A DNA stretch of 64,000 bases from a virus. Lineage: Duplodnaviria; Heunggongvirae; Uroviricota; Caudoviricetes. The stretch lies in the IMG/VR virus record IMGVR_UViG_2916199983_000001; one strand, written 5' to 3'. Made by a program: the position numbers and the translations under genes. Every line of letters begins with the position of its first letter. The first letter of the stretch is position 1. Shown piece after piece: positions 29,324-38,367 of this stretch. The notes under the pieces were generated by a model, which did not search any database, had not been told where the DNA came from, and saw only the letters and a list, made by a program, of their open reading frames with translations.

Positions 29324-29557
29324 TTATTTTTCTGTGACTCGTTCAGTTGCTATCTTTTTGACCAAGCTCACCTTCTGTTCCGGCGTTCTAGTGATGATGG
29401 CCGTAAAACGCTTCGCTTGAATAGTGATAGTTTCGTTCTCCTTCAGTTCGCCGTAGTGAGTCTCCAGCAGAGAACCCAGGCGCCACAGACCGTCATCTAT
29501 GCGTTTATGGCTGGCAAATCTGATCAGCAGTAGCTTTACGATTAACTGACCAGTGTA
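29324..29557 (-). pseudogene. 3' part of a 101-codon phage gene interrupted by the Tn3-family transposon
   Basis: Joined with 38363..38439 and counting the GTGTA once, it gives one open frame: MSNLTSFDWWLATYLVAAGFGYAFYTGQLIVKLLLIRF...TERVTEK. Confidence 0.6.
29553..29557. repeat. target-site duplication GTGTA (left copy)
   Basis: Identical pentamer abuts each 38-bp IR. Confidence 0.85.
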
Positions 29558-29595
29558 GGGGTTTGAGGGCCAATGGAACGAAAACGTACGCTAAG
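29558..29595. repeat. Tn3-family 38-bp terminal inverted repeat (tnpA end)
   Basis: It contains the tnpA stop codon, as in Tn3. Confidence 0.9.
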
Positions 29596-32500
29596 AAGTT
29601 AATTCATTGTTTAAATTGAAATTTAGTTCTCTCAGTTCCCCCTTCAAAATATCCTCCGGTAGCGTAAACGTATAATGCCCCAGCATATTGATATGCCCGT
29701 GCATCAGTGGGGACAACCGGGCGATATCTTCAACCCCGATTTCTTCTCCATTACTGCGTATCCAGCTCAGGGCTTCCTGCATATAAAGTGTGTTCCACAG
29801 TACCACTGCGTTAGTGACCAGGCCCAGTGCCCCCAGCTGATCTTCCTGACCTTCACGATAGCGCTTTCTGATCTCACCGCGCTGCCCGTAGCAGATCGCC
29901 CTCGCCACAGCATGGCGGCCTTCCCCCCGGTTTAGCTGCGTCAGGATCCGCCGACGATAATCCTCATCATCAATATAATTAAGAAGGTACAGCGTCTTGT
30001 TGACGCGCCCCACTTCCATGATCGCCTGTGCCAGCCCTGATGGGCGCGAGCTTTTCAGCAAAGAGCGAATGAGTTCTGAAGCATGAATGGTGCCCAGTTT
30101 CAGCGAACCGGCGGTTCGCATCATCTCATCCCACTGATCCTCGGCTTTCGACAGATCGGCACAACCACGTGCCAGTTCGTCCAGTGCACCGTAATTTGCC
30201 GATTTATCCACTCGCCAGAATACCGCTTCACCGGCATCGGCAAGCCGGGGGGAAAACTGGTATCCCAGCAGCCAGAAGAGGCCAAAAATAATGTCGCTGG
30301 TACCGGCTGTGTCTGTCATGATCTCAACCGGATTCAGCCCTGTCTGCTGCTCCAGAAGGCCTTCCAGCACAAAAATGGAATCTCGTAATGTGCCGGGGAC
30401 AACGATGCCGTGGAATCCAGAGTACTGATCAGAGACGAAGTTGTACCAGGTGATGCCACGTCCGGAACCAAAATATTTTCTGTTAGGTCCTGAATTGACG
30501 GTTTTCACCGGCGTGACAAAGCGCATGCCATCAGCTGAAGCCACTTCGCCACCACCCCAGCGGCCAGCAAGCTCCAGTGTGGACTGAAAATCAACCAGGC
30601 GGGCATTGGCGCTGACCAGCGTTTCTGCCCGGAGGTAATTCTGTTTTACCCAGCTAAGCCGGTGGCGCGTCAGCGCCGGTATATTGTGCTTTATCAGCGG
30701 TTCCAGCCCGATATTGCAGGCCTCTGCCATCAGGACCGCGCACAGGCTGATGTGCAGATCCTGTGCCCGGGCCCCGGATTCACTGACATGCGTAAACTCA
30801 CGTGTAAATCCCGTTCTGGCATCTATTTCAAGCAACAGTTCCGTCAAATCTACTGGCGGGAGTAGCAGCCTTACCCGACTGTTGAGACGATGCAACGATG
30901 TTGGCTCCTCCAGTTTCTCCAGGCTGCTGATAGTCAGGGAAGGATGTTTACCGTCATGGCAAATATGAACCTCCGCATTTCCTTCAAAGCGGGATGCGAC
31001 GGTTTTCCAGGTTTCATCTAGCTGGACCGCCAACTGTTGCACGCCTTTATGTCCATCAGTGGGATGTCCCAGCGCCCGGCAAACGGGGACCCGCTGAGCC
31101 TGCCATTCTTCCCCCTGCAACAGCTTCTCGCGGGGATTTCCCCAGCGATCGCTGTTTTCGAGCCAGATGTCCCTTCGACGTAGTGCATCCTGAAGGCGCT
31201 CCAGCAGACAAAGCGAGTAACCGGCACGCTGTATCCGGCCCTCCGCATCGTATACCAGGCGTTTCCAGGGGCCGGTAATAATATGTTCAGGCGCATTGTC
31301 CAGGATGCGCTTTTTCGAGCAGTTCAGTTCGGTCAGATAATGAATGGCGGACAACGTATGTTCTCCGGCTGGCGCTGCCTGGAAATGCAGGTCGCGCAAT
31401 ACCGCCGGAAGAAAGCGCTTTACCCGCCCGTACTGCTCCACCATTTCGTCATGGAAATTGTTGTTCTGAGGCCGGGCCAGCTCATTTACCTTGCAGACGG
31501 ATTCTGCCAGCCTGCTTTTCGGTATGCTGTTGAATATGGTCTCCCTCAGTTCAGCATCGTCAGCCTGTTCATCCAGCAACAATGAACATGCCCGCGCCAA
31601 TATTAGCGCAGCACGATCAAGATCTTTAAGCGTCCTGAGCCGTTTTTTCTGCCCCGTTTTCTTCGCCGCACGAGTGATATCCAGTATCAGCATATCGAGC
31701 ACATCAATGGCCTCATCCAGCGCCGCAGTCTCCTGCGCTTTAACGAATGCTGTGAGTACGGCCAGTTTTCTCTGCTGTGGCATTCGCGCGATATATTTTA
31801 CCGACGCCATGCCTGCGTAACGGGCCAAATTACGCAGTTGTATAGCAGGCAGACCGGTAAAATTCAGTCGGGAAAATTCCAGGTTTCGCAGCCGGATATA
31901 CCGCTCCAGCGCTTCGGTAAATGCCGGGCCGCTGACGGTGACCGGTCCCTTTTTCAGTTGCTCCAGCGGTGAAGTACGCTGCCCCTCAGGAATGTCCAGA
32001 AGCTCCGTCACGCGGGCGGTCTGCCAGCTGTCCGGCAACGCGGCCAGTTTCTTCCACAGCCGCTGATTTGCCCGTTCGCGTATTTCACTGACGAGACGTA
32101 CAAGTGTGGTTGCTCCGGGCAGCAGGACCTTATTCTGAAGCAGCCACGCGGTGGCAAAATCAAACATAAGGCCGGGTCGCTCATTACTGAGCCATGCGCG
32201 GGTGTACAGCAGGCGCTTCAGGCGGAAAGACCAGGGGAAATCGCCAAATTCATGGTAACCGTAATATTCCTTAATCAGCGCAGTATGCTCTCTGAGGGTG
32301 GTAACCCGTTCTGCGTAGCGGGTAAGGACTTCTGGACGGCGAATATTAAGCTGCACCGCGACAAATTGCTGAACACCTGGCAGAACCCGGGTTAAGTCTG
32401 TCAGAAAGGTGCCCAGAAAACGGGCGGTGGTGAGCTGAAGCGCAATTCCCAGCCGGTTATGCCTTCCCCGCCGCTGGTTAATGAAGGCAAGATCCCGCTC

Positions 32501-32599
32501 ATCAAGATGAAAATAGCGCGCCAGCTGCACGTCATTGGGTTCTGCAACATAGCGACCATAATTCAGTTCCTGCTCAGTGGTCAGAAAATCGACGGGCAT
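29591..32599 (-). CDS. tnpA: Tn3-family transposase TnpA
   Basis: 1002 aa. It closely resembles Tn3/Tn1000 TnpA from the N-terminus (MPVDFLTTEQ...ARYFHLDE...NRLGIALQ) to the C-terminal DDE region (GLVTNAVVLWNT.YMQ...LSPL.HGHINMLGHY). Confidence 0.95.
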   Translation of the reverse strand: MPVDFLTTEQELNYGRYVAEPNDVQLARYFHLDERDLAFINQRRGRHNRLGIALQLTTARFLGTFLTDLTRVLPGVQQFVAVQLNIRRPEVLTRYAERVTTLREHTALIKEYYGYHEFGDFPWSFRLKRLLYTRAWLSNERPGLMFDFATAWLLQNKVLLPGATTLVRLVSEIRERANQRLWKKLAALPDSWQTARVTELLDIPEGQRTSPLEQLKKGPVTVSGPAFTEALERYIRLRNLEFSRLNFTGLPAIQLRNLARYAGMASVKYIARMPQQRKLAVLTAFVKAQETAALDEAIDVLDMLILDITRAAKKTGQKKRLRTLKDLDRAALILARACSLLLDEQADDAELRETIFNSIPKSRLAESVCKVNELARPQNNNFHDEMVEQYGRVKRFLPAVLRDLHFQAAPAGEHTLSAIHYLTELNCSKKRILDNAPEHIITGPWKRLVYDAEGRIQRAGYSLCLLERLQDALRRRDIWLENSDRWGNPREKLLQGEEWQAQRVPVCRALGHPTDGHKGVQQLAVQLDETWKTVASRFEGNAEVHICHDGKHPSLTISSLEKLEEPTSLHRLNSRVRLLLPPVDLTELLLEIDARTGFTREFTHVSESGARAQDLHISLCAVLMAEACNIGLEPLIKHNIPALTRHRLSWVKQNYLRAETLVSANARLVDFQSTLELAGRWGGGEVASADGMRFVTPVKTVNSGPNRKYFGSGRGITWYNFVSDQYSGFHGIVVPGTLRDSIFVLEGLLEQQTGLNPVEIMTDTAGTSDIIFGLFWLLGYQFSPRLADAGEAVFWRVDKSANYGALDELARGCADLSKAEDQWDEMMRTAGSLKLGTIHASELIRSLLKSSRPSGLAQAIMEVGRVNKTLYLLNYIDDEDYRRRILTQLNRGEGRHAVARAICYGQRGEIRKRYREGQEDQLGALGLVTNAVVLWNTLYMQEALSWIRSNGEEIGVEDIARLSPLMHGHINMLGHYTFTLPEDILKGELRELNFNLNNELTS

Positions 32600-32762
32600 A
32601 CCGGCCTCCCTGCCTGATGGTCATGAATTAACAATTTCGCAACCGTCCGAAATATTATAAATTCTCGGACACACTAAAATGGTGTTGTCTAGGTGTCTAT
32701 TAAATCGATTTTTTGTTATAACAGACACCCACTGTCCGATATTTGATTTAGGATACATTTTT
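32600..32762. promoter_or_regulatory. res site and divergent tnpA/tnpR promoter region
   Basis: 163-bp AT-rich divergent intergenic region between tnpA and tnpR. This is the position of res in Tn3-family elements. Confidence 0.5.
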
Positions 32763-37686: not shown

Positions 37687-37733
37687 CTTTAACACCTCAT
37701 ATTCGTAAAAACATATATGTACAGGCAAAATTT

Positions 37734-38087
37734 TTAGATACAAACAGCCTTACCGCTGCCAGAGCAGTTGGCCGATGCCAGCTTACGGGCGATGGCCTGT
37801 ACGTCGTCCTGTTGACTTAACCAGGCCTGCTCAATCACCAGGGCAGCCCAGGAAGGAATATGCGGGGATAAGCGATAATGAACCCATTTCCCCTGCTTGC
37901 GATCCAGCAACAGGCCACTTTCCCGAAGCATCGCCAGATGGCGGGAGGTCTTGGGTTGTGATTGTTCCAGCGCTGTGCAGAGATCGCATACGCACAGCTC
38001 CCCCATCTCCCTGAGCAGTAGCACGATACCCAGGCGGGTTTCATCAGATAGTATTTTGAAAAGTTGTAGGGATGCAATTTCTGGCAT
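37734..38087 (-). CDS. arsR: ArsR/SmtB-family repressor ArsR
   Basis: ELCVCDLC metal-binding site and an HTH, as in R773 ArsR. Confidence 0.9.
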   Translation of the reverse strand: MPEIASLQLFKILSDETRLGIVLLLREMGELCVCDLCTALEQSQPKTSRHLAMLRESGLLLDRKQGKWVHYRLSPHIPSWAALVIEQAWLSQQDDVQAIARKLASANCSGSGKAVCI

Positions 38088-38324
38088 TATGTACTCCTGC
38101 TATGAATGGGTATTGTCTCTCCACCAAAACAAGAAGTCAAAATCATATGTGTTTTCTCGCATGTGAGTGCAGGTGTCACTATGCGGTTGAAAAACGACCT
38201 GATGTGCGATCGTTACGTTAGTTGGGTAGGTAAAAAAGTCATTTGAGGCTAAAACATTGCTTAGTGCGGGCTTTCAGTTCATAGAGAAGAATGAATAATA
38301 TCAATTATAACAATTGGTTATTTC

Positions 38325-38362
38325 CTTAGCGTACGTTTTCGTTCCATTGGCCCTCAGACCCC
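38325..38362. repeat. Tn3-family 38-bp terminal inverted repeat (ars end)
   Basis: CTTAGCGTACGTTTTCGTTCCATTGGCCCTCAGACCCC. It is 36/38 identical to the complement of the left IR, with two mismatches (C/G at IR position 33, A/G at position 30). Confidence 0.9.
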
Positions 38363-38367
38363 GTGTA
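38363..38367. repeat. target-site duplication GTGTA (right copy)
   Basis: Matches 29553..29557. Confidence 0.85.

Follow-up and report, generated by a model that had tools for sequence, protein, structure and literature searches.

A Tn3-family arsenic-resistance transposon of the gamma-delta subgroup in an SSU5-like phage-plasmid from Citrobacter

We analyzed a 64,000-nucleotide stretch of DNA (the window) from the tailed-phage record IMGVR_UViG_2916199983_000001, in which an earlier reading made from the letters and their open reading frames (ORFs), the sequence-only reading, had noticed a Tn3-family arsenic-resistance transposon inside a gene of a phage-plasmid. The segment of interest, 8,815 bp long, matches NZ_CP056401.1 at 100% identity and with matching coordinates. 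This record is the plasmid pRHBSTW-00570_3 of Citrobacter sp. RHBSTW-00570, and the window corresponds to its bases 1-64000. The transposon spans 29558-38362 (8,805 bp) and is bounded by 38-bp terminal inverted repeats, left (IRL) and right (IRR). The sequence-only reading had placed these repeats correctly; the identity between them is 37 of 38 positions, not the 36 of 38 that it had counted, and the sole mismatch is at position 6 (T vs C). A 38-mer search of the 64 kb that allowed up to three mismatches returned two sites only, IRL and IRR, where 100 shuffles gave an expectation of 0. Both ends begin with GGGG and are of the length, about 38 bp, by which Tn3-family repeats are recognized. 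The perfect 5-bp direct repeat GTGTA that had been described next to them is present on the two sides (Table 1).

The transposition module lies at the left end and consists of a transposase gene (tnpA) and a resolvase gene (tnpR), which diverge from a shared intergenic region. The predicted TnpA scored 1140 bits against the NCBIfam model transpos_Tn3 (cutoff 500), and is labeled just 'Tn3 family transposase' in the PGAP annotation. A closer placement came from comparison with gamma-delta, for which the reference was the 5,981-bp Tn1000 copy (ISfinder/PGAP name ISEc63) of the Escherichia coli TOP10 chromosome. TnpA is 90.9% identical to the gamma-delta/ISEc63 transposase over 1001 residues, and TnpR is 82% identical to the gamma-delta resolvase over 183 residues, with conservation of the N-terminal region that holds Ser10. 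The intergenic region aligns to its gamma-delta counterpart with long identical blocks, among them CGTCCGAAATATTATAAATT, and we take the res subsites I-III to be arranged as in gamma-delta. At the DNA level the match to gamma-delta is 84% and covers element positions 1-3603 together with ~59 bp at the right end. The two elements have in common the 38-bp ends, the divergent tnpA-res-tnpR layout and the length of the intergenic region (163 bp). They differ in cargo, which in gamma-delta is an ORF for a P-loop ATPase of 698 residues and in the window element an arsA remnant (arsA') with an arsRDABC operon. At about 84% DNA identity, the window element is distinct from Tn1000 and not an isoform of it.

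The cargo extends from element position 3604 to ~8746 (about 5.1 kb). Its main component is a run of five genes in the order arsR-arsD-arsA-arsB-arsC, all on the minus strand (33779-38087). Each of the five products passes its NCBIfam cutoff, and comparison with the reference alleles of AMRFinder gave identities of 98-100%. The best PDB match of ArsC was to the R773 enzyme (1I9D), over the full length and with E 2e-85, and the protein has Cys12. For ArsA it was R773 ArsA (1F48, residues 1-581), and the alignment contains both GKGGVGKT P-loops as well as Cys113, Cys172 and Cys422. The MCCSTGVCG cysteines of ArsD (Cys12, Cys13 and Cys18) and the metal-binding motif ELCVCDL of ArsR are also present. 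The operon shares with that of R773 the same five genes, the same order and the key cysteines, with product lengths of 117, 120, 583, 429 and 141 residues. It differs from the R773 operon as an allelic variant (~88% for ArsA and ~92% for ArsC, as judged by eye from the alignments), and in being embedded in a Tn3-family element. The cargo is, as predicted from these homologies, a complete R773-type operon that would confer resistance to arsenite and arsenate. The Pfam, NCBIfam, gamma-delta and PDB comparisons thus bear out the sequence-only reading in its assignment of tnpA, res, tnpR and the operon.

That reading had also reported a truncated arsA fragment next to tnpR. The fragment is real, and its origin is not the arsA of the element itself. 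Against the NCBIfam ArsA model the ORF matches positions 478-565 of 565 with 113 bits (cutoff 650). Its residues ~22-132 align to residues 464-581 of the resident ArsA at 51% identity, a value that rules out a partial duplicate of the resident gene, while residues 38-134 are 94-95% identical to the product of an arsA carried on ~317-kb Salmonella plasmids. In translation, the first ~37 codons (33344-33454) are 92% identical to part of the E. coli plasmid NC_004998 that carries the annotation of a sigma-70 family sigma factor. The ORF appears to be a chimera of two unrelated fragments, and arsA' is best read as a scar from an earlier exchange of cargo.

Table 1. Predicted features of the transposon and of the gene that it interrupts (window coordinates)
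Feature	Position	Strand	Remarks
Interrupted 101-codon gene, 3' part	29324..29552	-	SSU5_048 homologue, phrog_4507
Target-site duplication GTGTA, left copy	29553..29557		Identical to right copy
IRL, 38-bp terminal inverted repeat	29558..29595	+	GGGGTTTGAGGGCCAATGGAACGAAAACGTACGCTAAG; 37/38 to IRR; 37/38 to gamma-delta IRL
tnpA, Tn3-family DDE transposase	29591..32599	-	1002 aa, uninterrupted; Pfam DDE_Tnp_Tn3 (E 1e-150) and DUF4158
res, divergent tnpA-tnpR intergenic region	32600..32762		163 bp; gap-free alignment to the gamma-delta 163-bp intergenic region
tnpR, serine resolvase	32763..33335	+	190 aa from ATG at 32763; Pfam Resolvase and HTH_7
arsA' remnant, chimeric ORF	33344..33748	+	134 aa; residues ~35-134 correspond to an ArsA C-terminus from another lineage
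G+C-rich hairpin between convergent arsA' and arsC	33751..33776		Terminator-like on both strands; consensus scan
arsC, glutaredoxin-coupled arsenate reductase	33779..34204	-	141 aa; NCBIfam PRK10026, 301 bits (cutoff 242)
arsB, arsenite/antimonite efflux membrane subunit	34217..35506	-	429 aa; Pfam ArsB (E 1e-159); NCBIfam, 727 bits (cutoff 415)
arsA, pump-driving ATPase	35555..37306	-	583 aa; NCBIfam ArsA, 951 bits (cutoff 650)
arsD, arsenic metallochaperone	37324..37686	-	120 aa; NCBIfam ArsD, 133 bits (cutoff 90)
arsR, As(III)-responsive repressor	37734..38087	-	117 aa; NCBIfam PRK10141, 223 bits (cutoff 97)
Promoter-like site TTGACT-17-GACAAT	38112..38140	-	25 nt upstream of arsR; consensus match, putative function
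IRR, 38-bp terminal inverted repeat	38325..38362	-	37/38 to IRL
Target-site duplication GTGTA, right copy	38363..38367		Identical to left copy
Interrupted 101-codon gene, 5' part	38368..38439	-	24 codons, MSNLTSFDWWLATYLVAAGFGYAF

The element splits a 101-codon gene. In-silico removal of the element together with one copy of GTGTA rejoins the flanks into a single ORF (MSNLTSFDWW...TERVTEK), as the sequence-only reading had stated. The product of this reconstructed ORF is the same, at every residue, as that of an annotated intact gene of 306 bp on the plasmid pRHBSTW-00524_2 (NZ_CP056422.1, 112,583 bp), which comes from the same UK study and is without the transposon. We also reconstructed the empty site as a 1,200-bp query, 600 bp from each side of the element, and it matched pRHBSTW-00524_2 at 100% over the 1,200 bp. 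Over 20.6 kb on the right side of the site the two plasmids show 7 differences (99.96%); on the left side is a plastic region in which they diverge from each other. In phage SSU5 the homologous 306-bp gene is SSU5_048, and the locus of the insertion matches that genome at 98.2% identity. The gene family, phrog_4507, has no assigned function; a Pfam search of the 101-residue product gave no match, and the label 'C-type natriuretic protein' that it bears in databases is of no help.

Relatives do carry the gene uninterrupted at this site, a check that the sequence-only reading had itself proposed: apart from SSU5, the empty site was found in 471 plasmid records (at least 80% of the reconstructed site in a single match). 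Among the matches listed in searches with 1.5-kb and 12-kb flanks, no other record had the element at this same position. Two candidates for such a record were rejected. OW967264.1 holds a copy next to GTGTA, but in the unrelated context of a conjugative IncFIC plasmid and with unmatched flanks (TGATA/GTGTA). In CP055540.1 the copy is located at the end of the record and the flanks are not shared. The comparison argues for a precise and recent insertion of the element into the SSU5_048-homologous gene, in agreement with the original proposal.

The replicon that received the element, pRHBSTW-00570_3, is a circular, non-mobilizable IncFIB plasmid of 119,726 bp, from river water downstream of a wastewater plant in the UK. 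Its annotated plasmid functions include RepA (IncFIB), ParA/ParB-like genes and toxin-antitoxin pairs. Genes for replication and nucleotide metabolism encode a DNA polymerase III alpha subunit, a DnaB-like helicase, a primase, a ligase, NrdAB and ThyA. The morphogenesis and lysis block is complete, with terminase, a portal-sized gene, capsid, tape measure, tail and tail-fibre genes, and holin-sized and endolysin-sized genes. The gene order is collinear with that of Salmonella phage SSU5 (NC_018843, 103,299 bp). Gene lengths were compared from the annotation tables: every gene between the terminase and tail assembly, and each lysis gene, is as long as its SSU5 counterpart, and the genes for the distal tail, the fibre and receptor binding have other lengths. 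With its plasmid functions, this gene order and the identity of the insertion locus to SSU5, the host replicon belongs, as had been surmised, to the siphovirus phage-plasmids of the SSU5/pHCM2 group.

Additional observations concern the backbone. A gene of family phrog_13820 is split into two ORFs on the plus strand, 24196-25404 and 27661-28209, which match family positions 1-370 and 369-505 (of 505), respectively. The two are separated by a pair of abutting IS3-family elements, one with a transposase at 25535-26622 (+) and the other ISSen4-like at 26588-27750 (-). A third IS3 copy, with the same encoded protein, lies beyond the window at record coordinates 101183-102270. The tRNA-Asn gene at 28502-28576 (-) is the counterpart of the SSU5 tRNA-Asn. 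An ARAGORN call of tRNA-Lys at 49209-49289 (+) overlaps the end of the ParA-like coding sequence 48612-49277 (-) and is probably a false positive. A glutaredoxin of the GrxA family is encoded at 22349-22594, and a GrxA-family gene is annotated in two sister Citrobacter phage-plasmids as well. The ArsC acquired with the transposon is of the glutaredoxin-dependent type; the pairing is probably coincidental.

Strain RHBSTW-00570 contains three copies of the element on three plasmids, pRHBSTW-00570_2, pRHBSTW-00570_3 and pRHBSTW-00570_4. Each of the two sister plasmids gave one full-length match, and the window holds one pair of inverted repeats, a distribution compatible with replicative transposition via a cointegrate and with target immunity. 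The copy on pRHBSTW-00570_4 (34-kb, IncFIA) is 100.0% identical over element positions 1-8805 by megablast and has a target-site duplication of its own, TTTCT. The copy on pRHBSTW-00570_2, a 179-kb conjugative IncF plasmid (NZ_CP056400.1, 3001-11805 of the extracted locus), has 0 mismatches in 8,805 positions and is flanked by GATCC and TATAC, that is, it has no target duplication. This absence suggests later rearrangement or recombination between copies. Because two of the copies have fresh duplications and no differences were detected among the three, this allele of the transposon appears to be transposition-competent and to have moved recently. These identical copies within one strain, and the 100% empty site in pRHBSTW-00524_2, uphold the recency that the sequence-only reading had claimed.

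From these data we consider it very likely that an intact transposon of the Tn3 family (class II), autonomous and belonging to the gamma-delta/Tn1000 subgroup, occupies 29558-38362, and that it entered an SSU5-like phage-plasmid by replicative transposition, with a complete arsRDABC operon as its cargo. In such an event TnpA would act on the 38-bp ends and join a co-resident donor replicon to the phage-plasmid, copying 5 bp of target (GTGTA). TnpR would then resolve the cointegrate at res and leave one copy in each replicon. The insertion would have occurred recently, within or near the sequenced Citrobacter lineage. With the operon under a predicted ArsR-controlled promoter of its own, the phage-plasmid should give resistance while it is kept as a plasmid: arsenate would be reduced by ArsC, and the As(III) that ArsD hands to ArsA would leave the cell through the ArsAB pump. 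The cointegrate route, like the expression of the operon and the phenotype expected of it, is inferred from the established biology of Tn3-family elements and of ars operons; a passage in virions would likewise be an inference.

The element is common. Matches that cover 80% or more of its length were found in at least 160 plasmid records, mostly at 99.9-100% identity, on plasmids of Citrobacter, Klebsiella, Enterobacter, Escherichia, Raoultella and Yersinia; the transposition module is present at 99% identity or more in 74 E. coli records. At least two other SSU5-like phage-plasmids have received the element independently, a count from the matches listed and to be read as a lower bound. In LR890743.1 (Klebsiella pneumoniae INF336 plasmid 4, 140 kb) the element, with 14 single-nucleotide differences, lies within a homologue of a site-specific integrase (6001-14805 of the extracted locus) and is flanked by the duplication TTATT; the insertion point is equivalent to 20315-20319 of the window. 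In pRHBSTW-00127_3 (NZ_CP056836.1, Citrobacter, same UK study) an inverted copy with 0 mismatches (9945-18749 of the extracted locus) is flanked by the 6-bp repeat ATTTAT. Its position is equivalent to 28848-28853, at 704 bp from the window site, and the SSU5_048 homologue is intact. The duplications among the copies are in this way of 5 bp in three cases (GTGTA, TTTCT and TTATT) and of 6 bp in one (ATTTAT), with two copies, those on the 179-kb IncF and the IncFIC plasmids, showing no match. Three independent insertions fall within about 9 kb of backbone in the plastic region that extends from the integrase to the DNA-ligase operon, and several other SSU5-like plasmids have Tn3/blaTEM-1 in the same 17-42 kb region.

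Among deposited phage genomes we found none with the complete transposon. A remnant of 567 bp from its IRL/tnpA end, at 99.8% identity and beside IS1 genes, is present in OQ595196.1 ('Salmonella phage SJ1', a 24.5-kb circular record of a P1-like Punavirus; 4001-4567 of the extracted locus), which indicates that a phage-plasmid lineage of the P1 type has also been struck by the element. The 45-kb record of Citrobacter phage Chris1 (ON041214.1) ends with an arsRDABC operon (40998-45316) that is 86% identical to the operon in the window. This operon is of chromosomal type, and may be true prophage cargo or a chromosomal flank within the record.

The foremost alternative accepts the insertion and holds that the replicon, too large or too damaged, no longer works as a phage, in which case the ars genes would reside on a non-mobilizable plasmid and would not be transducible. 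At 119,726 bp, the replicon is 16% larger than SSU5, whose 103,299 bp derive from virions, and it also exceeds the transposon-free sister of 112,583 bp. Packaging in phages tolerates an excess of DNA of a few percent, and a sudden large gain blocks transfer (Pfeifer et al. 2022, PMC9600943), a limit that counts for loss of phage function here. The replicon has in addition suffered three IS3-family insertions, two of which split the phrog_13820 gene, and the transposon itself disrupts the conserved phrog_4507 gene. On the other side, the coding sequences for morphogenesis (terminase to tail assembly) and lysis are annotated as intact with SSU5 lengths, as are the replication genes, most of them with SSU5 lengths. 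SSU5-like plasmids of 115-134 kb exist, and two other SSU5-like elements that bear the transposon persist at 119 and 140 kb. Five of the six resistance-gene-bearing phage-plasmids tested by Pfeifer et al. (PMC9600943) could be induced and packaged, and five of the six were SSU5-like. Weighing these points, we give the loss of phage function a little less than an even chance; the phage competence of pRHBSTW-00570_3 itself we put at roughly an even chance, and the reading of the element as part of a transducible arsenic-resistance vehicle is plausible.

Several considerations weigh against the account of a recent transposition from a co-resident plasmid. The donor cannot be assigned with certainty, because the IncF copy lacks a target duplication. 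The identity of the three copies could in part reflect gene conversion and not recency, and the expected expression and phenotype of the operon depend on homology. A genome with three identical repeats of 8.8 kb is, moreover, classically prone to assembly errors, and with three copies free of detected differences in this strain one might suppose that the repeat was misplaced among them and that its position in the phage-plasmid is an artefact. A misjoin through the repeat would not yield a 5-bp target duplication whose removal restores a known ORF exactly; furthermore, the unique flanks differ for each copy and two of the copies have distinct duplications of their own. We regard an artefact of assembly as very improbable. 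Least probable of all, to the point of being negligible, is that the segment was ancestral to the phage-plasmid lineage and was lost by its relatives, a reading for which we found no support and which is refuted by the empty-site comparison: the perfect duplication, the ORF restored to identity with the annotated gene of the sister plasmid, the uninterrupted site in the 471 plasmids and in SSU5, and the location of the same element at different sites in other SSU5-like elements all speak against it. To our knowledge, precise excision is not a property of the Tn3 family.

With recent transposition as the preferred account, the element can be set beside known systems. The literature search for a formal published name yielded just an element without a name, the '8804 bp arsenic resistance transposon' that the IncN plasmid pQEB1 had gained in Klebsiella oxytoca and K. 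pneumoniae in a hospital study (Moran et al. 2024, PMC11368168). It resembles the window element in size (a difference of 1 bp), in its arsenic cargo, in its occurrence on plasmids of Enterobacterales and in the evidence that its acquisition was very recent. It differs in its host, which is a conjugative IncN plasmid and not a phage-plasmid. Matched by description and not by sequence, the two are almost certainly the same element. Tn2502 and Tn2503 of Yersinia likewise belong to class II and carry arsenic resistance, their tnpR and tnpA are divergent and a res site is present, and identical copies of Tn2503 reside on all four plasmids of Yersinia pestis Java 9, a spread over several replicons within one strain that resembles the one in RHBSTW-00570. 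They differ from the window element in their arsHRBC cargo, 53-bp ends, Tn2501-related module and sizes of 6.8 and 4.6 kb (PMC3316555).

A resistance transposon in a phage-plasmid has a classical precedent in phage P7, which carries Tn3. In SSU5-like elements, resistance genes occur beside Tn3-like transposases, and the insertions cluster at a single locus (Pfeifer et al. 2022, PMC9600943). The cargo in P7 and in these SSU5-like elements is antibiotic resistance, whereas in the window it is arsenic resistance. Our literature search found no report of an SSU5-like phage-plasmid with resistance to arsenic or to metals.

Neither the transposon itself nor an event of this class is new. Since resistance transposons in phage-plasmids are established and the element is common, current understanding is unchanged by this case. 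The window is nonetheless a clean and datable case of passage from ordinary plasmids to a phage-plasmid by a transposon for metal resistance: the duplication is perfect, a sister isolate has the empty site at 100% identity, and the same cell holds further copies. Arsenic resistance joins the traits that SSU5-like phage-plasmids have gained through Tn3-family elements, and the same plastic region has been struck repeatedly. That the SSU5-like phage-plasmids of wastewater and clinical Enterobacterales are a recurrent and still-infectious vehicle for the arsenic transposon seems to us possible, though less likely than not. The step of consequence is transfer by virions: if genomes of ~119 kb and above can still enter virions, lysogenic conversion would spread arsenic resistance with no need for contact between cells.

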